A stretch of 64,000 bases of DNA from Alphaproteobacteria bacterium (GTDB lineage: Bacteria > Pseudomonadota > Alphaproteobacteria > SP197): positions 2,144,001 through 2,208,000 of the forward strand of contig OZ219747.1 of NCBI GenBank assembly GCA_964291265.2, written 5' to 3'. The position numbers were made by a program, and so were the translations under genes. This document shows, one piece after another, positions 1,512-50,630 of this stretch. Below the pieces are notes generated by a model. It had not been told where the DNA came from. It searched no databases and was given only the letters and a program-made list of their open reading frames with translations. Position 1 is the stretch's first letter, and every line of letters starts with the position of its first letter.

Positions 1512-2120
1512 ATGGTGGCGACGGTTCACGAGCTTGCGTCCTCGGCGACCGCGGTTTCGTACTACGAGCAGGACGGGTACTACGCCCGCAACGATCCCGA
1601 GCACCGCAAGGCGAGCTTCTGGCATGGCCGTGCGGCGGGCGACCTTGGGTTGAGGGGCCACGTTGTGCCGTCGCGCTTCGAGTCGGTGCTGCAGGGCAAG
1701 GTGCCGAAGACGGACATCCGTCTGGGGAGGATCGTCGAGGGAGAGCGCCAGCACCGTCCGGGCTGGGACATCACGTTCTCGGCGCCGAAGTCGGTGTCTC
1801 TGGAAGCGCTGGTGATGGGGGACGTGCGTGTCATCCGGGCGCACGACGAGGCGGTTCGGGCGACCCTGGACTGGATCGAGCGGGACCTCTTGCAGACCCG
1901 GGGCTGGGATCCGGCGACGAAGCGCCGGCCGCGGGTGAAGGCGGACGGCATGGTGGTGGCGGGCTTTCGCCATCTCACAAGCCGTGATCTCGATCCCCAG
2001 CTTCACACGCACTGCGTTCTGGCGAACATGACGCGCTCGTCCGACGGCGCCTGGAAGAGCATCGAGCCGACATCCTTGCGGCGCAGCGAGAAGCTGATCG
2101 GAGCGCACTACCGCAACGAA
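1512..2120 (+). pseudogene. MOBF (TrwC/TraI-type) relaxase, N-terminal part, interrupted by IS21-type element
   Basis: Motifs YYEQDGYY, GWDITFSAPKSVS and HLTSRDLDPQLHTH; frame is broken at HYRNE by the insertion. Confidence 0.93.
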
Positions 2121-2187
2121 TGTTGATGGCTGCATAGAACGGCGGGATTTCGGCGATTTGCCGCGCTTTGTCAGGGTCGTGTTTCTT

Positions 2188-2280
2188 CCCTGTTGTTAGG
2201 TCCTATTGTCACGTCCTGTTGTCGTGGTTTGAGTGTTCGGCTGGTTGTCTCCCCGAGCGCCGCCGTCTTTTCCTATTGTC
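2188..2280 (+). repeat. Subterminal CCTRTTGT motifs (three at 13-bp spacing plus one more)
   Basis: cctgttgt 2189, cctattgt 2202, cctgttgt 2215, cctattgt 2272; inverted copy acaatagg at 7302-7309. Confidence 0.55.
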
Positions 2281-2598
2281 GTTTTGGTCCGGTTCGGGTT
2301 CCGTCGACCTCTGCTTCGGTCTTGGTGACGGTTGCCGGGAGGGTTCCGGTTCCGAGGCACTCGCGGGATCGTCTGTCTTCCCTGTGGGCGGGTCGCGTTG
2401 TCCGGTCCCGGGGCGGCGTTTTTGCCGCCGCCCCGGGTGGATGCTAGATCGGCATCAAGAGAAAGAGCGATGCGATGCCGGGCGGAGTTGTGACGCCCCC
2501 CGGCGCAGCACCCGGACGAGCCGGTCACGGGGGACCGAACTCCCGTGTATTGTCGAGCCATTTTGCGTCCGGGTCCACCCCCGCTCTCGAGACGGACG

Positions 2599-3075
2599 GT
2601 GTGCACGACAGGACGACTGTTCAACTGCAGGCGGTGTCAGCGGCAGGTTGTTCTCTGCCGGTCGTGTGACCGGGGGCATGTGTATTGCTCCAAGGAGTGC
2701 AGGGAGCGGTCCCGGATCGAGCGGCGCCGCGCGTCGCGTCGTCGCTACCAGAGCACGCTGAAGGGCCGTGAGACGGGCCGTCACCGCCAGCGGCGTTACC
2801 GGCTCCGCAAGGCGGAGGAGGCGCGTGCGTTGAAGGCCAGGGCGGCGATGGTTGCCGAGATCATGGACACGCAGACGTCTGCTGTGGTGCTGCTTGGCGA
2901 CGTTCCGGCGGTGTCTGGAGACGCCGGTTCTGAAGAAATCGTTACGGACCACCCTTCCCGACTGCTGCCGACCTCCCTACCTGCGGTTGTGAAGGCGCAA
3001 GAGCGACGCGAATCGCCGCTTCGGTGCGCCCGGTGCGGACGGGTCGTGACGCATGTGGTGCTGAGGGACCTGTGA
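2599..3075 (+). CDS. Cys-rich basic hypothetical protein (putative Zn-binding), first ORF of the IS21 element
   Basis: CxxC...CxxC...CxxxC cluster, an Arg-rich helix and C-terminal CARCG; GTG start at 2599 is inferred. Confidence 0.65.
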   Translation: MCTTGRLFNCRRCQRQVVLCRSCDRGHVYCSKECRERSRIERRRASRRRYQSTLKGRETGRHRQRRYRLRKAEEARALKARAAMVAEIMDTQTSAVVLLGDVPAVSGDAGSEEIVTDHPSRLLPTSLPAVVKAQERRESPLRCARCGRVVTHVVLRDL

Positions 3076-3107
3076 TGCGGCGTTGAGGAACCAAAGGGAG
3101 GGAGTTC

Positions 3108-4601
3108 ATGGCGATCGACGAGGACACGCGGGCGACGATCGTGCGGCTGTCGCGGGCCGAGGGCTGGGCTGTGGGGACGATTGCCCGGCATCTCGGCGTG
3201 CACCACGGCACGGTGACGCGGGCGCTCAAGGCGTCGGGGCAGGAGCGGCGGCCGCGGGCCAAGCTCATCGACCCCTTCGTTGCCTTCCTCGGGGAGCGTC
3301 TTGAGGCGTCGCCGGACCTTCCGGCCAGCACGCTCTGGCGACAGGTCGTGGCCCTGGGCTACCGCGGCGGCGAGGATCACTTCCGTCACGACCTGCGCCG
3401 CCTCGGGCTGAGGCCGGTGAAGAGGCCCGAGCCGTCACTGCGGCTGAGCTTCCTTCCGGGCGAGCAGGCGCAGGTTGACTGGGCCGAGTTCGGGAAGGTC
3501 CGCATCGGCCGGGCGGAGCGCAGGCTCATGGGGCTTCTCGTCACCCTCAGCTACTCGCGCCAGACTGTCCTGAGCCTGTTCCACGACGCGCGGATGGCCA
3601 GCTTCCTGCAAGGCCATGTCGAGGCTTTCGCGGCATTCGGGGGTGTGCCGCGGAGGCTTCTGTACGACAACCTGAAGAGTGCCGTGGTGACGCGCCGCGG
3701 CAAGGCGGTCACCTATCATCCGATGCTGCTCGGCCTCGCGGCCCACTATGCCTTCGAACCGAGCGCCGCCTGGCCCAGGAGCCCGCAGGAGAAGGGCCGC
3801 GTGGAACGCCGTGTGCGCTTCGCGCGCACCGGGTTCTTCGCCGGGCGCGACATCACGGTCCCGCTCGGCGAGCTCAACGCCGCAGTTCGGGAGTGGTGCT
3901 TCGGCGCCGCCGCGGAGCGGCCCTGGCCGGACGACGACAGTCTCCTGGTGCGGGACGCCTTCGCCCGGGAGAGGGAGCACCTGATCGTCCTTCCCGCCGA
4001 TCCCTTCCCGCATCACGAGGTCCGCCCGGTGCGCATCGACAAGACCTGCCACGCCCGCTTCGACACCAACGACTACAGCGTTCCGGGTAGCTTCTCCAAG
4101 GCCCTGCTGACGCTGGTCGCCGACCGCGACGAGGTTCGCATCCTCGACGGCGCCGACGAGGTCGCGCGCCACCGACGCTCCTACGACAGGAAGCAGGCCG
4201 TCACCGATCCGGAGCATGCCAGGGCGATCGCCGCGGGCAAGCGGCGGGCCCGCTCCATGAGCGTCCGCGACCGGGTCCTGCGCACCGTGCCGCGGGCCGA
4301 GGAGATGCTGGCGCGCGCCGGGACCAACGGGCGCAACGTGGCCTCCTGCGCCCGGATGCTGGAGACGCTTCTCAACGCGCACGGCGCCGACGCTCTCGAC
4401 CGGGCTGTCGCCACGGCGCTGGAGCGCGGCTCGTGCCACCCCGAAACCGTGCGCGTCATCATCGAGGAGCGCCGCCGGGAGCAGGGCCTGCCGCCCCTCA
4501 GCATCGCCGACGACGGCCGCGGCGGCCGTGGCACGACGCCGCGGGGGACCGCTCTCGACGCCTACGACAGGCCCGAAGCCAGCGCCAGGAACAAGACATG
4601 A
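3108..4601 (+). CDS. istA: IS21-family transposase IstA
   Basis: N-terminal HTH; PGEQAQVDW, LYDNLKSAV and EKGRVER motifs of the DDE core; GGGAGGGAG RBS. Confidence 0.95.
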   Translation: MAIDEDTRATIVRLSRAEGWAVGTIARHLGVHHGTVTRALKASGQERRPRAKLIDPFVAFLGERLEASPDLPASTLWRQVVALGYRGGEDHFRHDLRRLGLRPVKRPEPSLRLSFLPGEQAQVDWAEFGKVRIGRAERRLMGLLVTLSYSRQTVLSLFHDARMASFLQGHVEAFAAFGGVPRRLLYDNLKSAVVTRRGKAVTYHPMLLGLAAHYAFEPSAAWPRSPQEKGRVERRVRFARTGFFAGRDITVPLGELNAAVREWCFGAAAERPWPDDDSLLVRDAFAREREHLIVLPADPFPHHEVRPVRIDKTCHARFDTNDYSVPGSFSKALLTLVADRDEVRILDGADEVARHRRSYDRKQAVTDPEHARAIAAGKRRARSMSVRDRVLRTVPRAEEMLARAGTNGRNVASCARMLETLLNAHGADALDRAVATALERGSCHPETVRVIIEERRREQGLPPLSIADDGRGGRGTTPRGTALDAYDRPEASARNKT

Positions 4602-5299
4602 GCGAGCTCAGGGAGCGTGCCCGGGCGCTCGGCCTCCACGGGCTCGTCGAACGCTGGGACGAGGTCGCCGGGACCGCATGGATCGAGGAGGTGGTCAGCG
4701 GCGAGGAACAGGCCCGCAGGGCCCGCAGCCACGAGCGCCGCCGCGCCGCGGCGCGGCTGCCCGCCTTCAAGCCCCTGGCGGACTTCGACTGGACATGGCC
4801 GCGCGACATCAGCCGGGCCCATGTCGAAGCGCTCCTCGGCCTCGGCTTCGTCGACCGTGCGGACAACGCCGTGCTCGTCGGCGGGCAGGGCACCGGAAAG
4901 ACCATGATCGCTGCCAACGTGGCTCACCAGGCCCTGCTGCACGGCCACACCGTCCGCTTCGAGAAGGCGCCGGAACTGCTCGAGGCACTCGCCGAGACCG
5001 TCTCGCGCAGCGAGCTGCGCCGCCGCCTCGCGATCCTCGCCAGGCCCCGCCTGCTCGTCCTCGACGAAATCGGCTACGTGACCCTCGAAAGCCACCATGC
5101 CGACATCCTCTACGCCATCGTCTCGCGGCGCTATCAGCGCCGCTCGACCATGGTCACGACAAGCCTCGCCTTCGCCCAGTGGGACCGCGTCTTCCCCAGC
5201 GCCTCCGGCATCGCCGGCACCGTCGACCGGCTCATGCACGACGCAACCCTCATCTCCATCGACAGCGACTCCTGGCGGCTCAGGCGTGAAACCCGATAA
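4598..5299 (+). CDS. istB: IS21-family helper ATPase IstB
   Basis: ATGA overlap with istA; DFDW motif, Walker A GGQGTGKT, Walker B LLVLDEIGY, DRLMH...SWR. Confidence 0.95.
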   Translation: MSELRERARALGLHGLVERWDEVAGTAWIEEVVSGEEQARRARSHERRRAAARLPAFKPLADFDWTWPRDISRAHVEALLGLGFVDRADNAVLVGGQGTGKTMIAANVAHQALLHGHTVRFEKAPELLEALAETVSRSELRRRLAILARPRLLVLDEIGYVTLESHHADILYAIVSRRYQRRSTMVTTSLAFAQWDRVFPSASGIAGTVDRLMHDATLISIDSDSWRLRRETR

Positions 5300-6179
5300 A
5301 CCCCGCCGCGTCGACTTCGACGCCGTCAAGCGCATGCCGTTCGAACGCATCGCCGCCGACTGGGGATACGTCCGCGACGAACAGGCCTCGACACGCGCCA
5401 ACCCCGTCCTGTGCGCACCCGGCCTGCCGAAGCTCGTCACGAAGTGCCTCAACAACGGACACTGGGTCTACTTCAACACCCAGAACGATGAAGACAACGG
5501 AACCGTCATCGACTTCATGCTCAACCGCGGACTGGCCTTCGCCGACATCTGCACCCGCTTCACAGCACCCGACGCCGCGCCACGCGACTTCCGCAGCCTC
5601 TGGGCCGCGGCAACGCCCGATGCGGCCCCGGACTGGCTCACCGGGCGCGGCATCCTCCCGGAGACCCTCGACACCTGCCGCCCCCTGGTCCGCCGCGACC
5701 ACAACGGACGCGTCCTCTTCGCCCATCGCAACAGGAAGCGAAAGCTCACCGGCTTCGAGATCGGTCCCCCCGACGGACCGAAACGCTTCGCCACCGGTGG
5801 AACCCGAAGCCTGTTCGCCGTCCGCGCCGGAACCGCCGCGGACCTCGAGGCCCTCGTCATCACCGAAAGCGCCGTCGACGCCCTCAGCCTGGCCCAGATC
5901 GACCAATGTCCCCCCAGCCACGCCTTCCTCTCCACCGCCGGGGCACCCTCGCGAAGACAGCACGAACAGATCAGCCTCGCCGCAAGCAGCCTGCCCAACG
6001 TCAGGACCATCGTCCTCGCCCAGGACCACGACGAGGCCGGAGAGCGACAGGCCGAAACCCTGCGCAAAAAGATGAAGCTCCCCTCCCACGTCTCGTTCCA
6101 CAGACGCAGACCGCCGGAAAACGCCGACTGGAACGACGTCGTCAACGCCAGGACCAAAGAACCACAAGCGAGATCATGA
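5286..6179 (+). CDS. Toprim-domain (primase-like, DUF3991-type) protein
   Basis: Inferred GTG start overlapping the istB end; Toprim motifs VITESAVDALS, LAQDHDEAG and DWND; N-terminal DNGTVIDF and LxxRGI. Confidence 0.75.
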   Translation: MKPDKPRRVDFDAVKRMPFERIAADWGYVRDEQASTRANPVLCAPGLPKLVTKCLNNGHWVYFNTQNDEDNGTVIDFMLNRGLAFADICTRFTAPDAAPRDFRSLWAAATPDAAPDWLTGRGILPETLDTCRPLVRRDHNGRVLFAHRNRKRKLTGFEIGPPDGPKRFATGGTRSLFAVRAGTAADLEALVITESAVDALSLAQIDQCPPSHAFLSTAGAPSRRQHEQISLAASSLPNVRTIVLAQDHDEAGERQAETLRKKMKLPSHVSFHRRRPPENADWNDVVNARTKEPQARS

Positions 6180-6496
6180 CCACGTCCGTCACAAGGAGAC
6201 CACTCATGCCCCTCACGCCCGCCGAAAAGCAGCGGCGATACCGGGAACGGCGCAAGGCCGGCATCCCTCCCGTCCACACCCCAAAGCACCGTGACCGGCG
6301 CTCGCGACCGCAACGCTGGAACGACGCCGTGGCCGAACTGCGCGCCCTGCAGGACGAATGGCGTGACCACCTCGACAGCATCCCCGAAAGCCTCCGTGAC
6401 ACGCCTTACGGAGAACGCCTGCAGATCGTCGCCGATGCCGACATCGAGGCCCTCGAGGACATCGAACCGCCACGCGGCTACGGAAGGGATACGTGA
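6176..6496 (+). CDS. Small hypothetical protein (TPAEKQRRYRER...PPRGYGRD), last ORF of the element
   Basis: ATGA overlap with the Toprim gene; basic N-terminal helix and acidic C-terminus. Confidence 0.65.
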   Translation: MTTSVTRRPLMPLTPAEKQRRYRERRKAGIPPVHTPKHRDRRSRPQRWNDAVAELRALQDEWRDHLDSIPESLRDTPYGERLQIVADADIEALEDIEPPRGYGRDT

Positions 6497-7066
6497 TCCC
6501 GCAAGACCCTTGAACGCGGTCACGCGTTACCATCCAGGAATGAGAACGTCTCACCCCGACGCGCCGCTCAGCCTCCCCGGGAAACTCCCGGGCCGTCCAA
6601 ACGACACCGCATCACGAGACTGCCGCAGCCGCTGGCCGGACTGGCTTACAGGTCGCAGCATCCGCCCGAAAACACTCGACGCCTGCCGCACCCTGCAGGA
6701 CGAATGGCGTGACCGCCTCGACAGCATCCCCGAAACCCTCCGTGACACGCCTTACGGAGAACGCCTGCAGAGCGTCGCCGATGCCGACATCGAGGCTCTC
6801 GAGGACATCGAACCGCCACGCGGCTACGGAAGGGACACGTAATCTCGCAAGACCCTTGAACGCGGTCACGCGTTACCATCCAGGAATGAGAACGTCTCAC
6901 CCCGACGCGCCGCTCAGCCTCCCCGGGAAACACCCGGGCCGTCCAAACGACACCGCATCACGAGACTGCCGCAGCCGCTGAGCCGCAGCAACGCCCGATC
7001 CGCCGCCGGGCTGGCTCACAGGTCGCAGCATCCGCCCGAAAACACTCGACGCCTGCCGCACCCTGC
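6345..7066 (+). repeat. Tandem duplication, ~346-bp unit
   Basis: ccctgcaggacgaatggcgtgacc at 6345 and 6691; near-identical units, the second ~30 bp longer. Confidence 0.9.
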
Positions 7067-7280
7067 GCCGCCGCAACCGCAACGCACGCAGCCTCTTCGC
7101 CCAGCGCAACAGAAACCGTCAGCTCTCCAGCCTCGAGATCGTCCCGCCCGACGAACCACGACGAGGACGGAGAACGCCAGAACAAGACCCCGCGCAAAAG
7201 CCTGAAGCTCCCCTCCCACATCACGTTCCACAAACGCCGAACGCCAGAAAACGCCGACCGGAACGACATCGTCAACGTCA
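6948..7280 (+). pseudogene. Degenerate, internally deleted copy of the Toprim gene
   Basis: Aligns by eye to ~5570-5775 and then ~6025-6150; contains a TGG>TGA stop. Confidence 0.8.
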
Positions 7281-7446
7281 ATGCAAGACCAATGGGATCC
7301 AACAATAGGCAGAAAACAAAGACCGGGCGGACCTTCGTCCAATGCCGCACGTTCTCCTGTCGTGGTCACCCACTCACACGATCAGCGCCCAAAAGAGCGG
7401 TTCTCCGCCAATATCCCGCCGTTCTAAATCGCCGCCGACAAACGAA

Positions 7447-10400
7447 CTGGCGTCGCGCCTGGTGGCGCAGGGTTTCGCGGTGACGCCGCGGATGATCGGC
7501 CCGGTTCCGGGCTTCGAGCTGGCGGGCTACGACGGGGAGTTCCTGGACGCCTTCTCCGGGCGTCGCCGGGAGATCCTTGCCTACCTCGAGAAGCACGGGC
7601 TTCCGGCGACGCGTGAGGCGACGCAGAAGGCGACGCTCCACACGCGCCGCCGCAAGGTCGAGGCGGGCCTTGCCGAGCTGGTGCCGCAGTGGCGCGCCCG
7701 GGCGCGCGCCCTGGGCCTTGTGCGCGACGAGGCGGCGCTCAGGCCGCCGAGGCCGGTCGAACCGGAGACGGGCCGGGAGATGGCGCTGCCGGTGGCCCCG
7801 GAAGCGGGGCTGACGAAGAACGAACGCCGGCGGCGTCGTCGGTCGCCTGCAGCGCCGCACCTCGAGCCGGTGGCGGAGACCGCGGTGCGGCGGCGCCGGT
7901 TCCGCCCCTCGGCTCCGGCGGAACGCATCGCCGAGCCCGAGACGGGCGTCCTCGAGGCGGTGGCGCGGGCGGTGGCTCATGTCGAGGAGAGACGCACGGT
8001 GATCCCGGCTGGCGATATCCGGGCCCTGGTCCTGGGCCATGCGCCGGGACGCTACCGGCTGGAAGAGATCGACGCGGCGATCGAGCGCCTCGTCGCGGAA
8101 GGGGAGTTGCTGGAGACGGTCCTGCGGGGCTCGGACCGTTCCTTCGTCACCGACCGGGCGGTCAAGGCGGAACGGCGCATCCTGGAGGCGGTGAGGCAGG
8201 GCCGGACGTTGGCCGTCGCCCTGGTCCCGGAAGAGACGGTGACGGCCCGCCTTGCGGCGACGAGGCTGACCGCCGGGCAGGCGAACGCGGTGCGTCACGT
8301 CCTGGGGTCCGGCGATGTGGTGGTGGGCGTGCAGGGTCGGGCCGGCAGCGGCAAGACGACGATGCTGAAGGAGGTGGCGGGCCTCGTGGAGGGGCGCCCG
8401 CTCATCGCCCTTGCTCCCTCGGCCGCCGCGGCGCGGGTGCTGGAGAAGGGAGCCGGGGTCCCGACCCGCACCCTTCAGTGGTTCCTGGTGCGCTACGGCG
8501 ATCTCTCGGACCCCGACCGCCTGGAGCGGGCCCGCGAGGACATGGATGGCGGGGTGCTGGTGGTGGACGAGGCCTCGATGATCGGCACGGTGGCGATGGA
8601 GAGGCTGCTCGCCCTGGCCGGGACCCTTGGTATCGCTCGCGTGGTGCTCGTCGGCGACACGGCGCAGCTGAAGGCGGTGGACGCCGGCCAGCCCTTTGCC
8701 CTCATGCAGAAGCGCGGCATGGCGACGGCGGTGATGGACGAGGTGCTGCGCCAGGAGGATGCGGACCTGAAGGAGGCGGTGGTGCGGGCCCGCGAGGGCG
8801 AGGCCGGCGAGGCCATGACGCGGCTCGCCAACCGGGTGACGGAACACCGGGTGGAGGATCTCGGGGCAGAAGCGGCCCGGGCGTGGCTCGCCCTCGGGGC
8901 GGAGGACCGGGAGGCCTGCGCCGTCCTCGCCCCGACCCATGCCGTGCGCCGGGAGATCAACGCGGCCATCCGCGAGGGCCTGGCGCAGGAAGGCGTGCTG
9001 ACGGGAAGGACGCTCACCATCCAGCGCCTCGTCGACCGGCGCTACACCCGCATCGAGGCCTCGGTTCTCGCCAACTACGAACCGGGGGACACGGTGGTCT
9101 TCCACCGCGACGCCTATGGTTGCCGTGCCGACGATGTCTGCACCATCACCGGGGTCGGCGACGGCTGGGTCGTCCTCGACCATGCCGACGGCCGGGAACG
9201 ACGTTTCCGGCCCTCGGGCAACGCCGCCCGCAACCTCGGGGTGCACGAGACCGTGGAGATCGAGATCCGGGCCGGCGACCGGGTGCGCTGGACGCGCAAC
9301 CGCAAGGCCCGGCGGCGCACGCCGGCCCTGGTCAACGGCGAGGAAGCCCGCGTGCTGTCGATCGGGCCCGAGCGGGTGCGGCTGCTGGCGGACGACGGCA
9401 CGGAGTACTCCCTGGCCCGCAGCGATCCCCACCTGCGCCACCTCGACCATGCCTGGAGTTCCACGGTCCACGGCGCCCAGGGCAAGACGGCGAAGAAGGT
9501 CATCGCCGTCCTCGATGCCGGACACATGGCGAACCGGGAGATGTTCTATGTCGAGGTGAGCCGTGCCTCGCAGGGGTTCACCCTGTTGACGGACGACCGC
9601 GAGGCGCTGATCGAGTGTCTCGAGACCTCGCCCTACGTGCCCGACGCCGCGCTCGAGGCCCTGGGCGAGGATCTCGACGGCCCGATCGTCGATCCCGAGG
9701 CGTGGGCCGCCGTCGTGGCTGCCTGGGAAGAGGTGGAACGGGAGGCGTCGGGTTCGCCTCCCTCGTCGGTTCCGGCCTATGCCGGGGTGATGGCGCGCCT
9801 TGCCGCCTTCGCGGCGGTCGAGGACCTGCCGGCCGAGATGCGCGCCTTCGTCGATGAGCGCCTTGGAGCCCATGAAGCATCCCGTGCTGCGGAGCGCCAG
9901 GTGCGGGAGCTCATCGCCGGCCTGCAGGACCAGCCGCGGCGCTGGCCGGAACTGGCATGGGCGGCCCGGTCCACAGGCCACCCTGCAGGAGACGGCCCGG
10001 CCTGGCGGACGTGGCGCGATGCGGGAACGGCCCTTGTCGACAGCGCCCGGCGGCGGCTCGCCGGAGAGGAGGCGCCGGCGATTCCGGAGAGTGACCGCCG
10101 GCGCCTCGAGGCCGCGCTTGCCGGTGTGGAGAAGGTGCGGCTGAAGGACGATGCCGCGCGCTTTGCCCGCGACTGGCGGGCCCTGGTCGAACGGTCGCGG
10201 GAGAAGGCCGTGCCGGTCTCCCTCCTGGCGGACCATGCGGACCTCTCCCGCCGCGGCGCAGCCCTGGCGCGGTCCACGGGGCTGACGGCGGAGGAACGTC
10301 GTGCGGTGGAGGCCTGGCAGGCGCGCCATGCCACGGAGACCGCTCTCGTCGACGACTTCAGGTCGGCGCGTCAGAGAGCCGGCATGCTGGCGGCATGGTT

Positions 10401-13400
10401 CGCAGACCACGTGCCGCTCGATGGCGCGGGCGGGGTCGATCCCGAGGATGCCGATGTCACGCGGTGGCGGCGTGACGCGGAGGCTCACCTGCGGCATATG
10501 CGCTCGCTCCTTGACACGGACGGTCCTCATGGTCCGTACATCGCCGCCATGCCGGAGGAGCGCGACGGGATCGTGACGGCGGGCCGGGAGGTCGTCGAGA
10601 GACTGGAGGCGCTTGACCGCGCCACGCTGCTGTGGCGGGTCTGCGGGATCGCTGGCCGGGCCCGCCTCGAGGACCGCCTGCCCCTCGACCTCGCGGAATG
10701 GTTCGGCACGCTGGGCGAGATCCGCCGTGCCGTCGATGCCGCCGCACCCGGCGATCCGGTGGGCCGCCATCTGGAACGCTGGCTGGCAGACGACGGGCGC
10801 TGGCGCCGCGACCGCCACCGCGTGGCGGAAGTCGTCGGCCTGCTGAGGGACCTCGAACGCTCAAGGCCTCGCTACGCGGACCTCCGTGGCGACGCCCAGA
10901 ATCGCCGGGCGTGGCGCGACGGGGCCGAAGCCCTGGACGGCGCCCTCGAGACCGTGGTCGCCCTTGCCGACCACGAGCGCAGAGCCCACCTCGCGGCCTG
11001 CGGCATGACGGCGCAGGCCTTCGCTTCCCTGGTCGGCGCCGTGCCCCTGTGGCGCGCCACCGACGCGGCCCTCGCCGGCCTCGACGACTGGTCGGGGCGG
11101 GCCGCCGAGGTGCTGCGCGAGGGCGGCGAGGGTCCGACCATCGCGCAGGAGGATGTCGAACGGGCTTACGCCCTGATCGAGGAGGGCAGGAAGCTTGTGG
11201 AGGAATGGGCCGCCCATCCCTCTCGCACGGGCGACATGGCGGGCGCCCGGGACGCCGTCGACAGCGTCGTCAGGCAGCTCGAGGCAGCCCGGTTGACGGC
11301 CGCATGTCAGGCGTTCGCCGCCCTCACCTGGTCCGTCAGCCGGGCCCATGAGGAAGGCGGCGTGCACCCCCTCGATGCGGCGGACTACCCCCGGCTCCTG
11401 GCGGCTCTGGAGGATCTCGCCGGACGCGAGGGCACGCCGCAGGCAACGCGCGACCTGATGGTCGACTGGCGGGACGCCGACGGCAGGTGGAGGCAGGAAC
11501 GCCGCGAGACCGAAGCCACCGTCGCCAGGGCCCGGGTCCTGGCGAAGACGGGGCCGGCGCCTGCGGCGGCGGACCATCCCGATGCGGACCATCCCGATGC
11601 CCAGGCCTGGCGCACCGAGGCGGCGGCAATGCTGACGGCTGCCCGGGCGATGTTGGCCGACAGGTCGCTGAAGGCCCGCCACCTCGATGCACTCGCCGAC
11701 GCCCGCCACGGCCTCGCTGCGGCAACGGCAACCATCGAGACGACCCTTGGAGCCCTGGACCGCGCCGCACTTCTGCAGCGGGTGAAGGAGATCGAGGACC
11801 GCGCCGAGGCCGCCGGGCGGCTCCCATGCGACCTCGCTGACTGGCCCGGCCTTCTCGAGGAGGTCTCCGCGGCGGTGGCCGACGGCGCACCGGCGGCTGG
11901 AACCGTGCGCGCGCTTGCCCGCCGGCTCGATGACGACAGGCGCTGGCGCCGTGACCGCGCCCGTCTCGCCAAAGCCCTTGCCCGCCTCGCGGAGGTCGAG
12001 ACGAACCGGCCCACGTTCGGCGGCTCAGGCGACGACCGTGCGGCCTGGCGCGCCGCGGCCCCGGCGGCGGCAGAGGAAGCCGGGGCGGCGATGGACGCCA
12101 TCCCCGAAGGCGAGCGCACCGCGCAGCTTCGCGCCCTCGGAACATCCCCCGATGCCTTCCGGCAACGCCTTGCCTCGGTGCCCTCCTGGATGGCGACGGA
12201 CGCCGCCCTCGATGTTCTCGCGGACTGGCGCCGCCGCGCCGGCCGCCTGGTGGGCGAGGCGGCGGAACCGGGTGATCCCCGCTGGCGCCGCGACGCCACG
12301 GCGCTCCTGGCCGAGGGACGCGCACTTCCCGGCGCGTGGAAGGCCGGCGGCCTGCCGGCTCGCGACATGGCGGGCGCCCGGGACGCCGTCGACAGCGTCG
12401 TCAGGCAGCTCGAGGCAGCCCGGTTGACGGCCGCATGCCAGGCGTTCGCCGCCCTCACCTGGTCCGTCAACCGGGCCCGCGAGGAAGGCGGCGTGCACCC
12501 CCTCGATGCGGCGGACTATCCCCGGCTCCTGGCGGCCCTGGATGATCTCGCCGAACACGAGGGCACGCCGCAGGCAACGCGCGACCTGATGGTCGACTGG
12601 CGGGACGCCGACGGCAGGTGGAGGGCGGAACGCCGCGAGACCGAAGCCACCGTCGCCAGGGCCCGGGTCCTGGCGAAGGCGGGGCCGGCGCCTGCGGCGG
12701 CGGACCATCCCGATGCCCGGGCCTGGCGCACCGAGGCGGCGGCATTGCTGACGGCCGCCCGGGCGATGCTGGCCGACAGGTCGCTGAAGGCCCGCCACCT
12801 CGATGCCCTCGCCGACGCCCGTCACGGCCTCGCTGCGGCAGCGGCAACCATCGAGACGACCTTCAGAGCCCTGGACCGCGCCGCACTTCTGCAGCGGGTG
12901 AAGGAGATCGAGGACCGTGCCGAGGCCGCCGGACGCCTGCCATGCGACCTCGCTGACTGGCCCGGCCTTCTCGAGGAGGTCTCCGCGGCGGTGGCCGACG
13001 GCGCGACGGCGGATGGAACCGTGCGCACGCTTGTCCGCCGGCTCGATGACGACAGGCGCTGGCGCCGTGACCGCGGCCGTCTCGCCAAAGCCCTTGCCCG
13101 CCTCGCGGAGGCCGAGGCGAACCGGCCCACGTTCGGCGGCTCAGGCGACGACCGTGTGGTCTGGCGCGCCGTGGCCCCGGCGGCGGCAGAGGAAGCCCGT
13201 GCGGCGATGGACGCCATCCCCGAAGGCGAGCGCACCGCGCAGCTTCGCGCCCTCGGAACATCCCCCGATGCCTTCCAGCAACGCCTTGCCTCGGTGCCCT
13301 CCTGGATGGCGACGGACGCCGCCCTCGATGTTCTCGCGGACTGGCGCCGCCGCGCCGGCCGCCTGGGCGAGGCGGCGGAACCGGGCGATGCCCTCTGGCG

Positions 13401-14721
13401 CCGCGACGCCGCGGCGCTCCTGGCCGAAGGTCGTGCACTCCCCGGCGCGTGGAAGGCCGGCGGCCTGCCGGCCCGCGACATGGCGGGCGCCGGGGATGTC
13501 GTCAAGACCGAGGCCGAGCGCATCGACGCCATGCTCCTCGGCGACAGCCTGCGGGCTCTCGTGCGCCGGGCAGACGCCATCAATGGGGAGGTGCGGGACC
13601 ATCATCGCCATCCCCTCGATTCGCCCCACATGGCGCCCCTGCGCGAGGCGCTGCGGCAGCTCCGGGACGATCCGCGCCTTACCGCGGAGGACCGGACCAC
13701 CGTCGGCGCGTGGCGCGAGACGCTCGATGGCTGGGACGGCGAACGCCAGCGGGTTCATGAGCTCGTCGCGGAGGCCCTGGCTCTCCAACCCGGCCTCCAG
13801 GGAAGCGCAGCGCTGTCCGACGCCTGGCGCCGCCGTGCCCGGATGCTGCTGGAGGCCGTGGAGGCAGGGTCGCTGAACCAGGAGGCCCACATCCGCGCCG
13901 CGGGCGCTTCGCCCCGGCGCCTCGCCTACATCGTGGCGGCACTCCCGGAACGCCTGGCCCAGGACGATGCGGTGCGCGAGGAGGCAGGCCGGACCCGCCA
14001 CCTCCTCGAGGTCCGCACCGCCATGCGGCAGCTGCGGGAGGCGCCGTTCGACGTCTCCCGCAGCGTCCGCTGGGACGGGACCGAGCCCCTGCTCCGCGGC
14101 GACCGGCTCAGCTGGGTCGACGCAGAGGGCCGCCACGACGCGGTTGTCGAGATGGTCAGCCACGTCACCGGCCCCGACGTCATCGATCGCCTGCGCATCC
14201 GTCCCGTCGGCGGCACAGAGACCCGCAGTCTCCACGCCGAGACGCTCCGCCCCCTTGCCGACAACGTCACCTGCCGGCGCCTCCTGTGGCCCGACGAGAC
14301 GCTGCGCCAGCGGGAACGCGACCGGCAGTATCCCGCCCGCAACGACGCCTTCCCCTTCGCCTGCGAGGAGAGGGTGCTACCGGGCGACAGGATACGCTGG
14401 ACCATGGTGCGGCATGCCGGCCCGGTCCAGCCCCCGCTCGAGGGCGACACCGCGCAGGTCGAGGCGATCGTCGAGGCCGTCGAGGCCGGCGTCAACGACG
14501 TGGTGGGAGACGGGGTGACGCTCCGCGTGGTCCGCTCCTGGGGGATGCAGGGAGCGCCTGCAGCCGGTTCGACGATCCGCCAGGACATGCGCTCCCTCTT
14601 CACGCGCGGATGCGTACGCGCGCCCTGGGATGACGAGACGGCGCGGGAGAGGCGCATGGCCGAGACGCTCCGGGAGATCGAGGCCCGCAGGCGTGGACGG
14701 TCCCGCGGCCTGTCGATGTAG
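7447..14721 (+). pseudogene. MOBF relaxase continuation: RecD-like SF1 helicase plus very long repeat-containing C-terminal extension
   Basis: FSGRRREI, GRAGSGKTT, VVDEASM, LVGDTAQL, STVHGAQG and YVEVSR motifs; ends RGRSRGLSM; open frame throughout. Confidence 0.9.
11231..13490 (+). repeat. Intragenic tandem repeats of 1,131 and 1,113 bp (~375 aa)
   Basis: gcgacatggcgggcgcc at 11231, 12362 and 13475; the two full units are near-identical; a diverged unit precedes them (~10150-11230). Confidence 0.93.
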
Positions 14722-14758
14722 GCGCCAGGCTCATGCTCCCCCGATGATCCCCTGCCGT

Positions 14759-15235
14759 TCAGGAAAAGAGATCCGGCTGGACCGTATCCGCGGCCCGCGG
14801 GCGCTCCGTCGTCGTTCTCCTGACGGAGGCCATGACGGCGGCCGCCTGCTCCTCGCCGAGGATCGAGGCCAGCTCGGCCTGGAGATCCTCCTCCCGGCCG
14901 CGGGCGATCATGTCCTTCGCCCACAGGTTGAACATCACCGCGACCCGCGCCTGGATGTCGGCCATCAGCGACGATGTGTCCTCATCGCCCTGCAGCAGCG
15001 AGAGCATCTCCCGGTGAAGCTCCAGGAGCTCCCGCTGCTGAACCCCGGCCAGCACCAGCGGCGGTCCCCTGTCGCCCTCGGCCCCGTCCCGGGCCGCCAG
15101 GCCCACGAGATAGCGGGCGATCGAGAGCCCGCGGCCTGCCGCTTGCGACCTCACCATCTCCCACTCGGCGTCCGTCGCCGAGACCGTCAGGTGCTTCGAC
15201 GGCGGCTTCTTCCGGCGACGCCGCCGCGGCCTCAT
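14759..15235 (-). CDS. Ribbon-helix-helix (MobC/NikA-like) protein 3
   Basis: LTVSATDAEWEMVRSQAAGRGLSIARYL pattern; ATGA-coupled to the upstream gene. Confidence 0.7.
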   Translation of the reverse strand: MRPRRRRRKKPPSKHLTVSATDAEWEMVRSQAAGRGLSIARYLVGLAARDGAEGDRGPPLVLAGVQQRELLELHREMLSLLQGDEDTSSLMADIQARVAVMFNLWAKDMIARGREEDLQAELASILGEEQAAAVMASVRRTTTERPRAADTVQPDLFS

Positions 15236-15525
15236 CGCCATCGGCTCATCACCGCCACCGCCGCAAGGAGGGTCAGGCCCTCCGTGCCGGGAAGCTCCCG
15301 GCGCAGGGCGCTTGCCACCTCCTGCAGGGTCCTCGTGCCCTCGAGGAACTCACGCTGATCCTCCGGCGACAGCACCAGGGGATGGATCTGCGGATCGTCG
15401 TCGCGGGCAAGGTCAAGCAGGTAGCCCGACACCGTCTTGCCGGCGGCCTTCGCCTTCCCGCGGATCATCTCCTGTTCCTCGGGCGGACAGTGCACGGAAC
15501 GCTGGCGCTTCAGCTGGCGCGTCAT
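15232..15525 (-). CDS. Ribbon-helix-helix (MobC/NikA-like) protein 2
   Basis: RSVHCPPEEQEMIRGKAKAAGKTVSGYL pattern; ATGA overlaps at both ends. Confidence 0.7.
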   Translation of the reverse strand: MTRQLKRQRSVHCPPEEQEMIRGKAKAAGKTVSGYLLDLARDDDPQIHPLVLSPEDQREFLEGTRTLQEVASALRRELPGTEGLTLLAAVAVMSRWR

Positions 15526-15860
15526 CCCCCGTCTCCCGCCGCCTTCCAGCGGTTGGCCGCTCCCGGATCGGTCAGGCGCGCCAGGACGCCCTCGCTCTCC
15601 AGCCAGGCGTTGACCGCCTCTCCGGCCTCCTCCCAGGCCTCCCCGGAGCCAGCCTCGCGCAGGCGCCGCTCTTCCAGGCGGGCCATGACGAGCACCTCCC
15701 GCACGGCCCGCCGCAGCACCTCCACCGGCAAGGCATCCGGCAACAGGGTGCGCTGCACGATGAAGCGGGAGAGCTCCATGCCGGCCGCACGGGCCGCCCG
15801 GGTGATGCGTTCCCACTCGGCGTCCGTCGCCATGACGGCGTGCTGGCGGCGGTCGGTCAT
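15522..15860 (-). CDS. Ribbon-helix-helix (MobC/NikA-like) protein 1
   Basis: HAVMATDAEWERITRAARAAGMELSRFI pattern. Confidence 0.7.
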   Translation of the reverse strand: MTDRRQHAVMATDAEWERITRAARAAGMELSRFIVQRTLLPDALPVEVLRRAVREVLVMARLEERRLREAGSGEAWEEAGEAVNAWLESEGVLARLTDPGAANRWKAAGDGG

Positions 15861-16222
15861 GGCGCCGTGACCAGCGTTGACTGGGGAAACACATGCGCCG
15901 GATGAGGGCCGATCAGAGATGTCATTGTCCTGTGCTCATCCTGCATGGCGATATCGAAGCCCCTTCTTGTGTTGTTCTTGTGGCGCGCTGATATGTTTCT
16001 GTTGCGTCATCCTGGACGGCCGTGAGGGATCTGGCAAGCGGACAGTCGTGGCCGTTCTACTTCCCTGGGTGCAACAATTTAACGACATCGGAACGACACC
16101 GCGTTGTTCCGGCGCGATCGAAAATTCCCTTGCACTGTCCCGTAACCTGTTGTAGAAGGGCCGGGAAGTGAGAGATGACGTTTGGTTGCCGTTGGCCGGT
16201 TGGTGTCGTTACCGACGGTTCT

Positions 16223-18588
16223 TGTGCTTACACCATAGCCGTGGGGTGATCCAATATGACATGATGCCTATATTGGAGCAGTCCAGGCCATGAACACGCT
16301 CGCAATGCACCCTCCCGAAGCCGTCCAGATCGGAACCTCGTGCTTCTCCCTTGCCGACCTCGACGGACAGACCGTCTACTTCTCGAACATGGAGCCCTTC
16401 GACTGCCACGACGAGGGCGACCGGCCGGCCATGCTGCTGCGGATCGTCAGGTTCGCCAGGCACGGCGTTCCTCAAGGAGACCTGCAGGCGGCCTTCGACG
16501 TGAGCCGCGCGACCGTGCAGCGGGCGGTGAGGAAGCTCCGGGACGAGGGCGAAGCGAGCTTCTACGAGCCACGCAAGGGCCGTGGTCTCAGCGTGATCAC
16601 AGGCGAGACGGCAGCCGCGGCGAACCGTCTCCTGGCCGAGGGCATGAACGCCGCGGCACTGGCCCGGGAACTGGGGATCGCGAGATCGACGGCGTACTAC
16701 AACCTCAGCAACGGCTTCATCGGCGGCGGAGAGCGGCCGCAGGCGGCGCAAGTCGACGAGGCCACGCGATGCCCGGACGATCTTCTCGGCCGCGGCGAAC
16801 GGGACCGTCGCGACAGGGTCGCGCCGATGGGGCGCGGCGCGCGCGACAGCGCCGGGCGCGTCGCGGCCTCGACGGGAGCCATGAATGAAGCGCCGCCGCG
16901 CTTCGACGAGCCACTCTCGGCGGTCGCCGGCGGCGGCGTCCTGGCGGCGCTGCCGGCGCTGCTGAAGGAGGGTCTCCTGGAGCACGCGGACAGGTTCCTG
17001 TCGCTGCCGAAAGGGTACTATGGGCTGACGAGCGTGCTTCTCATGCTCGCCTTCCTGTTCATGGCCCGGATCCGCAACCCCGAGGCGCTGCGCCACGAGG
17101 CGCCCGGAGAACGGGGCGCGGTCCTGGGGCTCGACCGCTGCCCGGAGGTCAAGACGCTGCGGCGCAAGATCAGGGCGCTGGCGAGCGACCCGCAGCGGGT
17201 CCGGGACTGGCAGGACGCGCTGGCGAAGGACTGGATCGCGGGCGCGCCGGATGTCTGCGCGACACTGTCGGTGGACGGGCACGTGAAGGTATATTCGGGC
17301 CGCAAGGGTCGCCTGCCGAAGCACTTCGTGTCACGTCAGAAGCTCTGTCTGCCGGCCTCGACAGGCTATTGGGTCAACGCGCTCGGCGGCCGGCCGCTCC
17401 TGTGCCTGCACAAGGACCTCGACCCGACCATGACGCACGCGCTGGAGCACGACATCCTGCCCGCGCTGGAGCGGCTCGGCCTGCCGGGGCCGGAGGCGCT
17501 GAACCTCGCCAGGGGAGAGGCGGTCGCGCCGGGGCTGACGCTGGTGTTCGACCGCGAGGGCTGGAGCCCGGCGCTGTTCGCCCGCCTCGCCCGGCGCGGG
17601 GTGGCGGTGATCACCTGGCACAAGGGGTTCCGGAGCGATCCCTGGCCACAGGGAGAGTTCCGCACGGTCCGGGCGCCGCTCCACTCACCAGGTGGCGTCC
17701 GCACCGCCGAGGTGCGGCTCGCACAGAGACGGATCACGCTGTCCGGCGGACCGCAGGTGCGCCAGATCCGGCGTCTTCTGGACAGCGGCCGGCAGGTGCC
17801 GCTGATTACCACGGACATGCACACGCCCATGGAGCGGGTCGCCGGCGCGCTGTTCTCGCGCTGGTCCCAGGAGAACTTCTTCAAGTACATGCGCCAGGAG
17901 TTCGGCCTCGACGCGCTGGCCGTGCACGGCCTTGTCGAGCAGGACCCCGAAGCGCGCGTCGTCCATCCGCACTGGCGCCGCTGCGACCGCCGCATCCGCC
18001 AGCTGCGCCAGAAGCTCGGCACACTGCGCAACCGCGTCGCCGACCTGCTCAAGGGCGCCCCGTCCGACACCGCCATCACGGCCGCCGCAACGCTGCAGGA
18101 CAAGATCGTGACGCTCGACGCCGAGCACGAGGCGCTCAAGGTCCGGCGTTCAGAAATCCCGAAACATGTCACCGTGGCCGAGCTCGACGAGAACGACAGG
18201 CTCGACGCCCTGCCCTCCAGCGAGAGGCTGCTGCTCGACATCGTTCGCATGATCGCCTACCGCGCCGAAACCCGGATGATGGCCGCCGTCGCCCAGGCCC
18301 AGGGCGCAAAGCAGCGCCCGCGACGCCCTCTCGCCGAACTGTTCCAGTCGGACGCCGACATCATCCCCGATCAGGAAAACCGCGTCCTGCGGGTGCGCTT
18401 CCTCGGCACCGCCAGCAACGCGCGCGACGCCGACATCGCCGGACTGCTCGATGAACTCAACCAGACACGCACGATCTTCCCAGGAACCGACCTGCGCATG
18501 ATCTACGACATGCCAGACAACCCACCCAAACTCGGCCCAGAAGCATCAAACTGATTGGACAAATTCATAGCCGAGGTCAGGACGTCTG
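16223..18588 (+). mobile_element. IS element copy 1 (754-aa transposase), left IR missing
   Basis: Near-identical to the element at 50633-55434; right IR GAGGTCAGGACGTCTG at 18573-18588; homology begins only at ~16223. Confidence 0.85.
16290..18554 (+). CDS. Large DDE-type transposase (family not confidently assigned)
   Basis: Two N-terminal HTHs; VDGHVKVY, LVFDREG and RWSQENFFK motifs; multicopy and IR-flanked. Confidence 0.82.
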   Translation: MNTLAMHPPEAVQIGTSCFSLADLDGQTVYFSNMEPFDCHDEGDRPAMLLRIVRFARHGVPQGDLQAAFDVSRATVQRAVRKLRDEGEASFYEPRKGRGLSVITGETAAAANRLLAEGMNAAALARELGIARSTAYYNLSNGFIGGGERPQAAQVDEATRCPDDLLGRGERDRRDRVAPMGRGARDSAGRVAASTGAMNEAPPRFDEPLSAVAGGGVLAALPALLKEGLLEHADRFLSLPKGYYGLTSVLLMLAFLFMARIRNPEALRHEAPGERGAVLGLDRCPEVKTLRRKIRALASDPQRVRDWQDALAKDWIAGAPDVCATLSVDGHVKVYSGRKGRLPKHFVSRQKLCLPASTGYWVNALGGRPLLCLHKDLDPTMTHALEHDILPALERLGLPGPEALNLARGEAVAPGLTLVFDREGWSPALFARLARRGVAVITWHKGFRSDPWPQGEFRTVRAPLHSPGGVRTAEVRLAQRRITLSGGPQVRQIRRLLDSGRQVPLITTDMHTPMERVAGALFSRWSQENFFKYMRQEFGLDALAVHGLVEQDPEARVVHPHWRRCDRRIRQLRQKLGTLRNRVADLLKGAPSDTAITAAATLQDKIVTLDAEHEALKVRRSEIPKHVTVAELDENDRLDALPSSERLLLDIVRMIAYRAETRMMAAVAQAQGAKQRPRRPLAELFQSDADIIPDQENRVLRVRFLGTASNARDADIAGLLDELNQTRTIFPGTDLRMIYDMPDNPPKLGPEASN

Positions 18589-18836
18589 AAGGTTGCCCCG
18601 GCATGCGCCGTACGTCCTTCCCCAGGTTGTCTCGGACGCCCCGCACACCTTCACTGACGACAGTTGCAACTCGCCAGCCGTCCGCTCACCGTCGATCAGC
18701 GCGATCCTCTTCGCGCACGGACGTAGTGTTCCAGGACACCATTCTCGGGAGTCTGATCGGCCAGGATCAGGTCGCGTCGCAGTTCAAGGACGCCGACGAT
18801 GAACGTGTCTGAGGATACCCGGCGCCTGGCAGAGGA

Positions 18837-18881
18837 AGCGGTTCTCCGCCAATATCCCGCCGTTCTGAATCGCCGCCGACA
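18837..18881 (+). repeat. Orphan copy of the IS21 element right end
   Basis: 45 bp matching 7396-7440 with one mismatch, ending GCCGACA. Confidence 0.92.
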
Positions 18882-27229: not shown

Positions 27230-27630
27230 CACGGGCGGCGATACGGGGAAGACCGGCCTGCACGATCCGGCGGGCTGCCCCTGCCAGCGAAGCCAGGGCA
27301 ACATGAAAGCCGCCAGGCTCGGCGAACAGGTCGATGAAGCGAAGGAGGCTCATGTTCATTCAGCCCTTGTGCGGCCGTCCGTCACAGGTCCGCTTCGCAG
27401 ACGGCAGCCCGGGGCCAATCAGCACCACCGGTACTCGCGCCGGATTGCCGAGCGCCGCCAGTGCCGCAGTGCACTGACATACGGCTCCCGAGCCCTTTCC
27501 ACCCTCACCGAAGCTTGCCGATCAGGGGGAGAATCGAGCGCTTGCAACAGCTGCCGGCACGGAATAAACTGTCGGCTCGTCATGCCTTCATGCCCTGCCA
27601 TGGAGGCCCATCCATCGAGGAGCGAGCGCG

Positions 27631-30111: not shown

Positions 30112-30218
30112 TCTTTCCGGATAACCGTGCTTGGTGGCGTCCTCACCCGTGGTTCCGTGCGCCACCCCGCCGACCGCGACGGCGGCACACGCTGATTGTT
30201 CGCGCTATGGTCGGGCGC

Positions 30219-30830
30219 ATGGACGACCCTGTTTCGATTCCCAGCGCGCTTTCCTCGCCACAAGGCATGGCGAAGTTGTCGCGGATTCTGGCGCAGCCGG
30301 AGGTCTCACGTGCCGAGATCGGCCGCAGGGTATGCGACGCTTTCGGCTTTGTTGACTTTCGCGGGCGACCGCAGGTCACGAGTTGCCTTTGTTGCCCTTC
30401 GCCGTCTTGAGCGGGCGGGCAGGATCGTTCTTCCTTCGCCCCGCCGTGGCGGCGGCCGGGGTGCCGTGGCTCGCAGGGAGGTGGCGGTTGCCGAGCCTGT
30501 GGGCCTTCCGGCGAGCGCCGGTGCGGCCTGAGGGCCTTGAGCTTGTCCGGGTCGAGGGATCGGAGCTTCGGCTGATCTTCAACGAGCTGATGGCGTCGGA
30601 GCATCCGCGCAGCGCCCGTCTTCACGTCGGCCGTCAGCTGCGCTACCTGATAGGATCGTCGCATGGCTGGCTCGGCGGGTTCCTGTTTGCTCCGGCGACG
30701 CGGGTCCTGGCGGCGCGGGATGCCTGGCTTGGCTGGGACGATGCGAGCCGCGAGCGGCATCTCGACGAGGTGATCGGTCTGGCGCGATTCCTGATTCTTC
30801 CATCCGTTTGCGTACGTTATCTTGCGTCGC
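30219..30830 (+). pseudogene. DruA/DUF4338-like fragment (probable IS4-type transposase N-terminus)
   Basis: FNELMASEHP...GRQLRYLIGS...ARDAWLGW...RFLILPSVCVRYLAS parallels the N-terminus of the 51723-54014 protein; frameshifted. Confidence 0.75.
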
Positions 30831-50006: not shown

Positions 50007-50630
50007 CTACACGACCTCGAGGTAGCGTTCCCGCTCACTGGCGCTGACATGGCGGCGCATGCGCGCATCCTCGTGGAAACGCGTTGCCACGAAATGATCG
50101 ATGAAGGTGTCGCCGAAGAGACTGCGCGCCGCATGGCTCGCATGGAGGCGTTCCGCAGCCTCGGCGAGGCTGCGCGCAAGACGCGGAACGCCGCCTGGCG
50201 TGTCATCGGGTCCGCCCTCCGTGATGGGCATCGGCAGGGCCATGTCCCTCTCGATACCGTGAAGTGCCGCGCCAAGGGTCGCCGCAATGGCAAGGTAGGG
50301 GTTGGTGTCGGCGCCCGGAAGACGGAATTCGATGCGCGCCCGATCTGCCGGTGCGGGCACGGCCCGCACCGCCGCGGCATAGTTCTCGACAGCCCAGGTC
50401 GCCGTCTTCGGCGCCCAGTTTCCAGGCGCCAGGCGGCGGTATGCGTTGACGGTATGGGCCACCAGGGCGGTGAGGTCGCCGGTGAGTCCCACCACGCCGG
50501 CGACGGCCTGGCGCATGGTCGTGCTCATGGCATCCCTTGCTCCGGCGTCGTGGAACAGGGGCTGGCCGGTGGCGCTGTCGGCGAGCGAGAGGTGAACGTG
50601 TCCCGAGAGTCCGGGATGGAAGGCGCCAAA
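50007..50630 (-). pseudogene. Glutamine synthetase family gene, C-terminal part (IS-interrupted)
   Basis: GAFHPGLSGHVHLSL, NAYRRLAPGNWAP and RIEFRLPGADTNPYL; joins the 55435-56142 part in frame. Confidence 0.9.

Follow-up and report, generated by a model that had tools for sequence, protein, structure and literature searches.

Insertion sequences (IS) of the IS21 family move by means of two proteins: IstA cuts and joins the element's ends and IstB captures the target. In canonical members such as IS21 and IS5376, istA (a DDE transposase gene) and istB (an AAA+ ATPase gene) form one operon between TGT..ACA repeats, and insertion mostly produces 5-bp target duplications (PMC10122671, PMC11208146). 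We analyzed a 64,000-nucleotide stretch of an alphaproteobacterial genome (positions 2,144,001 to 2,208,000 of contig OZ219747.1, assembly GCA_964291265.2; hereafter the window) that contains an element of this design, 5,320 bp long on the + strand (window positions 2121..7440), in which istA and istB are accompanied by a gene for a DUF3991/Toprim protein resembling a primase. We found that the element does belong to the IS21 family and that its primase-like gene is non-canonical but conserved, and we consider below what that gene may contribute to transposition.

The element has been active recently and transposes as a single unit. Its own genome holds 30 full-length copies at 98-100% identity and 23 partial matches, the full copies amounting to about 160 kb (3%) of the genome, and 26 of the 30 are simple insertions with 5-7-bp duplications. 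At the window copy, the duplication AACGAA (6 bp; 2115..2120 and 7441..7446, both +) flanks the element, and contigs bridge the empty site with a single AACGAA in all three runs of one study, one of which may be the source sample. A chance origin of the element is excluded by the near-identical copies together with the bridged empty site, and an initial annotation that had described a 5.3-kb repeat-bounded element moving as a unit was right on this point. The exact 6-bp duplication that it had also reported is present here but is not the rule, since 21 of the 30 copies have 5 bp (6 bp in four, 7 bp in one, none in four). The ends carry the TG..CA terminal inverted repeats expected for the family (left, 2121..2169, +, starting with TGT; right, 7392..7440, -, ending in ACA on the + strand); the arms at 2135-2169 and 7392-7426 are 77% complementary, and the region contains no longer inverted pair. 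A 9-mer scan for multiple IstA-binding repeats (L1/L2, R1/R2) detected, apart from the shared end motif, a single further match that was weak, and neither a sigma-70 promoter-like site nor an excess of terminators was found for the element.

Five genes, all on the + strand, lie between these ends. They encode a Cys-rich putative zinc-finger protein (orf1, 2545..3075; start codon uncertain), the IS21 DDE transposase (istA, 3108..4601; D124, D187, E233; NF033546 222.8 bits, cut-off 160), a 233-amino-acid AAA+ helper ATPase (istB, 4598..5299; PF01695 E 3.6e-50, 171 bits, cut-off 24; NF038214 191 bits, slightly below the cut-off of 200), a 297-amino-acid DUF3991/Toprim protein that we predict to be a DnaG/T7-type primase (5286..6179), and a small basic protein of an unnamed family (orf5, 6206..6496; alternative start 6176). 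IstB is about 20 amino acids shorter than in sister IS21s; its gene follows directly on istA with an ATGA overlap and overlaps the Toprim gene by 14 nt (GTG at 5286, TAA at 5297-5299). The initial annotation had listed five co-oriented open reading frames, the last four linked by such overlaps; all five exist and the first two of these overlaps stand. The coupling of orf5 to the upstream gene is doubtful because the likelier start is ATG 6206, which is preceded by AAGGAG and is where the orf5 homologues begin to align. Moreover, of the other primase-bearing elements compared, just one has orf5, and its homologues also lie beside other elements, so that we regard it as a passenger and not as a core gene. 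Among the 30 copies in the own genome, istA, istB and orf1 are intact in all 30, the Toprim gene in 29 and orf5 in 27. The core set is orf1-istA-istB-primase gene, with orf5 as an optional addition, and the recurrence of these four core genes in relatives makes the element a variant rather than a canonical two-gene IS21. Homologues of orf1 also occur in primase-less sister IS21s; atlas searches for orf1 and orf5 returned unnamed clusters only. In one other region (L177, G000:C2:3026000-3040000; L and G numbers denote our loci and genomes, G000 being the window's own genome), four copies of an IS110-like transposase gene are each followed by an orf5 homologue (79%), near a group II intron-type reverse transcriptase reading frame (names assigned by eye).

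The Toprim gene is tightly linked to this IS21 type. A protein search returned 48 close relatives, most of them 51-80% identical and some partial, followed by a gap and then a distant set at about 30-38%. When species-representative genomes were scanned, 61 loci turned up, spread over 18 genomes of uncultured alphaproteobacteria. In 58 of the 61 loci istB ends directly upstream of the Toprim gene, the other three being gene fragments, and all eight genomes with comparable copies share a unit of 4.05-4.73 kb with TGT..ACA ends that encloses orf1-istA-istB-Toprim. Starting instead from IstB, we retrieved 37 loci in which this protein is at least 63% identical, and every one of them carries the Toprim gene or its 5' part downstream. 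They comprise all eight such matches outside the own genome from one search and, from another search with 57 matches, 29 of the 30 loci that were retrieved. The synteny inside matching repeats that the initial annotation had proposed to look for recurs in these genomes, and the closest istAB homologues carry the gene; their lack of it was the outcome that the annotation had named as damaging to its view.

The gene also shares the history of the transposase. In trees of IstA and IstB, 13 sampled primase-bearing elements form one clade against six sister elements (support 100/100), and the primase tree contains three of the same well-supported subgroups, with the rest weakly resolved. Primase distances follow IstA distances (Mantel, rho 0.89; two primase rows in this set read past stops). 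Under a codon model fitted to 12 elements (L075 was left out as a near-copy of L072; 11 rows for orf1), omega was 0.111 for the primase gene, 0.134 for istA, 0.085 for istB and 0.346 for orf1, and fixing omega at 1 for the primase gene made the fit 465 log units worse. Counting estimates of dN/dS (medians 0.45, 0.40 and 0.45) were set aside for the codon model because two primase rows ran past stops and four orf1 rows were mis-framed. The primase gene is retained across elements whose IstA is only 49% identical; fragments, frameshifts and decayed repeats of it also occur. The gene entered this clade a single time and has since been retained by selection that matches the selection on the transposase in strength. 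The proposal of an IS21 subgroup with its own Toprim gene thus holds, in that the gene moves with the element, diverges together with istAB and evolves under purifying selection.

The predicted fold points to a primase. Pfam assigns Toprim_2 (E 3.5e-13) and a DUF3991 match (E 5.6e-4) short of the DUF3991 cut-off, and in a tree the protein is placed among annotated DUF3991-and-TOPRIM members. Its predicted structure (predicted local distance difference test, 86.5) is most similar to the T7 gp4 primase fragment (Foldseek E 2e-7; Z 14.5, root-mean-square deviation (rmsd) 3.5, 180 aligned), followed by DnaG and Twinkle. The basic N-terminal subdomain of the polymerase domain is present, and about 180 residues align to the T7 gp4 and DnaG cores, whereas topoisomerases, RecR and RNase M5 align to the Toprim part only (about 90-110 residues for topoisomerase and RNase M5). 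A profile search of solved structures returned T7 gp4 alone (E 6e-7), with E194/D198/D247/D249 aligned to E157/D161/D207/D209, R121 to R84 and K/R166 to K128, and the single PADLOC match was a DnaG-like model. When the N-terminal ~95 residues were folded alone, the four best matches were primase zinc-binding domains (ZBDs) at modest Z scores (6.1, 5.8, 4.7 and 4.1; the top match with rmsd 3.4 and 80 aligned), and Foldseek with this domain gave nothing at E 0.001 or better.

At the predicted active site, the window protein holds all Toprim acidic residues: E194, D198, the DxD pair D247 and D249, and the distal D281. Of these, E194, D247, D249 and D281 are kept in 45, 42, 43 and 41 of the 48 clade proteins, the misses being mostly fragments, and the acidic-site equivalents are kept in 118-120 of 120 proteins of a second clade (described below). 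Strong conservation also extends to a basic surface (R148, R152, R167, R174). Unlike the OLD/Gabija-type Toprim nucleases, the 297-residue protein has no fused ATPase domain. Together, the model suggests a protein that is primase-like rather than nuclease-like and built like a compact DnaG-type primase, with priming as its predicted activity; we do not class it as a DnaG because its ZBD-like domain has no zinc ligands. We considered orf1 as the missing zinc domain acting in trans and rejected this, orf1 being present in sisters that have no primase. The profile match and the T7 gp4-like model for 5286-6179 agree with the Toprim assignment of the initial annotation, which had left priming and nicking side by side; the fold favours the former and disfavours the latter.

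The primase gene has relatives both on plasmids and in other transposons. Plasmid homologues are 26-38% identical, and of ten that we inspected, four are C-terminal parts of long mobilisation proteins (two annotated MobV) and six stand alone, four of these beside type IV secretion system (T4SS) or mobilisation genes; none of the ten lies beside a transposase. A search of 72,556 plasmids found no primase of the transposon-borne clades, the best matches reaching ~30-36%. Besides the window's IS21 type, we observed three further transposon backbones with such a gene. Backbone B (4.0-4.2 kb, TGT..ACA ends) consists of a Cys-rich gene, a TnsB-like DDE transposase, an ExeA-like AAA ATPase and the primase gene; genome G005 (L035, L036, L178, L179) has 15 full primase matches, the backbone also occurs in G431 and G437, and L245-L247, L259 and L260 are further loci of such 4.0-4.2-kb TnsB-like/ExeA-like elements. 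Backbone C (5.16 kb, ends TAAGCG..CGCTCA) encodes a Cys-rich protein, an IS481-like DDE transposase, an AAA_22 ATPase, an AAA_25 helicase and the DUF3991/Toprim protein, and is found in six copies in the window's own genome, four of them whole with 5-bp duplications (G000:C2:47062-52222 (L175) and five more places), and in G430 (L257, L258). Backbone D is a distant classical two-gene IS21 (~30% identity; 3.4-3.5 kb) in G430, G431 and G437 with the primase gene inside its ends (L242-L244, L248-L250, L253, L254); in one further IS21 locus, on a short contig, the primase gene is co-oriented. Some loci related to backbone D also have an orf5 homologue (L202, L256, L193).

In a 54-row primase tree, the window's clade is nested among plasmid and context-less proteins, and the primases of B, C and D group in another clade, close to MobV tails, in which the three backbones are intermixed. 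Grouping all transposon-borne primases under a single origin was rejected (approximately unbiased test, p 2e-5; the test was designed after the tree had been seen and includes two context-less rows). The nearest relatives of the window's element on plasmids of cultured bacteria have IstA 42-47% identical. The five inspected (IstA 42-46% and IstB 43-50% identical) come from Mesorhizobium, Aromatoleum, Alicycliphilus, Burkholderia thailandensis and Methylotuvimicrobium (L117-L121). These sisters share with it an orf1 homologue, istA, istB, a fourth gene overlapping the istB stop and TGT..ACA ends; they differ in being ~3.4 kb long and in that the fourth gene encodes a 63-73-amino-acid protein instead of a primase. 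Likewise, relatives of backbone C that lack the primase, located on plasmids of Paraburkholderia and Cupriavidus, have a 71-90-amino-acid gene after the ATPase, and the Cupriavidus gene is 65% identical to the fourth gene of a sister IS21 (L285:6752-7024; L118:7233-7445). Because a small gene or a primase gene follows the ATPase in related elements, the accessory slot behind the ATPase appears to be swappable. The small unnamed gene is itself common to unrelated transposase systems (IS481-like/AAA and IS21). Taken together, the trees and gene neighbourhoods show that transposons captured the primase family at least twice, and that the primase gene derives from the DUF3991/Toprim pool of plasmid mobilisation regions as an old, retained capture. 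A one-off capture of a relaxase tail, a possibility that the initial annotation had raised against itself, was rejected, the best matches being IS-borne and not relaxase C-termini.

Elements of the window's clade are common to distant alphaproteobacterial lineages. Wider searches, in each of which few candidates were scored per genome, returned little: an IstB search of 400 class-level genomes matched two, both of the sister type; the second-clade primase was not found among 400 phylum-level genomes; and a profile of the window's clade (clade A), run on 300 additional genomes of one family, had matches in three (one beside an istB fragment, one a fragment, one distant). A JGI metagenome scan gave at least seven distant loci (28-36%), without istAB among the matches listed, and of 21 pattern matches in viral contigs none was confirmed.

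Movement as a unit, core status, selection, primase architecture and repeated capture support the idea that the primase gene of this four-gene IS21 subgroup, drawn from plasmid mobilisation regions, serves as the element's own primase in transposition, a reading that we regard as plausible and only a little short of probable. Copy-out/paste-in has been proposed for IS21 (PMC11208146), the family is listed among those with circular intermediates (10.1101/2023.06.07.543989), and figure-eight intermediates are converted to circles by replication (PMC7780238). Relaxase-linked primases, for their part, turn transferred single-stranded DNA double-stranded without the machinery of the recipient (PMC5714925). 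In the present element, replication would turn a single-strand-bridged intermediate into a double-stranded circle, and we infer that the element-encoded enzyme would lay an RNA primer on the single-stranded element strand or on the strand-transfer fork. IS911 replication is said to need host DnaG; priming of its own would make the element independent of the host primosome and could thereby raise its transposition rate or widen its host range. As the same primase family serves unrelated transposases, we propose that the enzyme would act on DNA structure and not through one partner protein. More tentatively still, the loci may represent a convergent class of self-priming transposons, in which at least four backbones of DDE transposase plus AAA ATPase (two IS21, two IS481/TnsB-like) would have domesticated plasmid primases, one together with a RepA/AAA_25 helicase, for a replication step independent of the host primosome.

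Several observations weigh against a role of the enzyme in transposition. All five inspected sisters consist of orf1-istA-istB plus a small fourth gene, without a primase, and IstA and IstB of canonical IS21 suffice for integration in vitro (PMC10122671), so the primase is not generally required for IS21. Selection indicates usefulness to the element or to the host and is not proof of a transposition role. Circle or tandem end-to-end junctions numbered zero in the genome, and none was listed from three contig sets, in which rare forms drop out; in data of this kind such junctions could readily escape notice. A measured activity for any DUF3991 protein was not found in the accessible text of the literature searched. 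In backbone D the primase gene is convergent and outside the operon, as passengers often are. As for the active site, the ZBD-like domain has no conserved Cys, its Cys/His zinc ligands being absent, the position of T7 K122, a residue described as essential (PMC9198812), is Glu in 41 of 48 clade proteins (in a sequence-profile alignment), and D198 is replaced by Asn in 19 of 48.

Some of these points, with others, would suit an active primase that works outside transposition, keeping its ancestral plasmid job and priming the complementary strand of conjugatively transferred element-bearing DNA, so that it would be a selected passenger aiding spread to new hosts. The mobilisation context of the inspected plasmid homologues, never beside a transposase, the occurrence of the clade in distant lineages, the position of the window copy in a relaxase gene and the convergent gene of backbone D all fit such a passenger. 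Yet the plasmid survey contained no transposon-clade primase, there is no sign of protein co-transfer, and in three backbones the gene directly follows the ATPase, where primase-less relatives have the common 70-90-amino-acid gene, which leaves this explanation doubtful, if worth keeping in view. The Glu at the K122 position, the frequent Asn at D198, the absent zinc ligands and the conserved basic surface would instead be expected of a non-catalytic or weakly catalytic accessory factor whose binding to single-stranded or forked DNA would bring in the host replisome, shield an intermediate or steer target choice. This we hold to be unlikely: the acidic residues are kept in both clades (41-45 of 48 and 118-120 of 120), the Glu is also common to the plasmid family, and the insertions show no replichore bias (14 of 29) and no orientation bias relative to local GC skew.

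Toprim folds also occur in nucleases (PMC8649781), and simple insertions flanked by duplications account for 26 of the 30 copies, as might result if the protein nicked the non-transferred strand, as TnsA does for Tn7, and so made the element a cut-and-paste transposon. Simple insertions are equally a product of copy-out/paste-in, however, and the model matches primases over both subdomains and the ZBD, topoisomerases and RNase M5 over the shorter Toprim part alone, and has no OLD-type ATPase domain; a nuclease is accordingly improbable. Even less credible is a neutral one-off capture hitch-hiking with a successful element, to which the plasmid origin and the fragments, frameshifts and decayed repeats could be ascribed: it is largely refuted by the selection test (omega 0.11), by retention across IstA only 49% identical and by at least two independent captures.

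Turning to the surroundings of the element, the window copy interrupts a MOBF (TrwC-type) relaxase/helicase gene, whose 5' part (1512..2120, +) and 3' part (7447..14721, +) together make 2,627 codons in one frame. This interrupted gene goes beyond the initial annotation, as does a stretch inside the element (6635..7280, +) where orf5 (6687-6980) and the primase gene (6948-7280) are partially repeated in decayed form. Several genomes have this element or a relative of it within a MOBF relaxase gene or next to one (window 1512-14721; L033, L041). Five of the 30 full copies are nested in another copy (G000:C2 301618, 4059791, 4066882, 4147072 and 4238189; crude P 0.007 against a 4% genome share), which speaks against target immunity or for local hopping. 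At G000:C2:4237410-4258495, the outer ends of two copies carry one common 5-bp duplication (CGTGC), and the two therefore seem to have acted as a composite transposon that took along the ~5 kb lying between them. A lone right end without a left partner lies at window 18852-18881, with ~15 more lone ends elsewhere in the genome. Other stretches of the window are repeated 2-8 times in the genome and are likely other mobile elements (7400-12400, 12400-16200, 16200-18600, 27600-29100, 30200-30800 and 50600-55400).

We found no description of an IS21 with a primase or Toprim gene in the accessible text of the literature searched, a scope that did not extend to subscription journals, ISfinder, TnPedia or supplements, and PMC10293859 and PMC8649781, in their accessible parts, mention no such gene for IS21. 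The replication of branched intermediates of replicative insertion sequences is usually ascribed to unspecified host machinery, and donor processing in IS21 has only been proposed. A clade with a built-in primase and sisters without one form a natural plus/minus pair in which the replication step is directly testable. If our proposal is true, it would give the DUF3991/Toprim family its first function, and the repeated capture by unrelated transposase-plus-ATPase systems, in one case together with a helicase, would make the distinction between insertion sequence and self-replicating element less sharp.

Compared with known systems, the element stands apart in several respects. Canonical IS21 has two genes, whereas in this clade istA is always preceded by an additional Cys-rich gene, and istB, which is shortened, is always followed by a primase-like one. 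Plasmid DUF3991-and-TOPRIM proteins, whether stand-alone or fused to MobV/MOBP, have the same domain pair and motifs at 26-38% identity, but the present protein stands alone inside a transposon. With DnaG-type primases (the T7 gp4 fragment and bacterial DnaG) it shares a ZBD-like and an RNA-polymerase domain and the Toprim acidic residues; it differs from them in having neither zinc ligands nor a helicase or helicase-binding domain, and in the Glu at the T7 K122 position. Where priming is tied to replicative transposition, Mu and IS911 reportedly use the host primosome. The PrimPol-helicase IEE of E. coli O157 likewise ties priming to replicative transposition intermediates (10.1101/2023.06.07.543989), but IEE belongs to the archaeo-eukaryotic primase (AEP) family, acts in trans and promotes excision, whereas the present Toprim enzyme is encoded inside the element.

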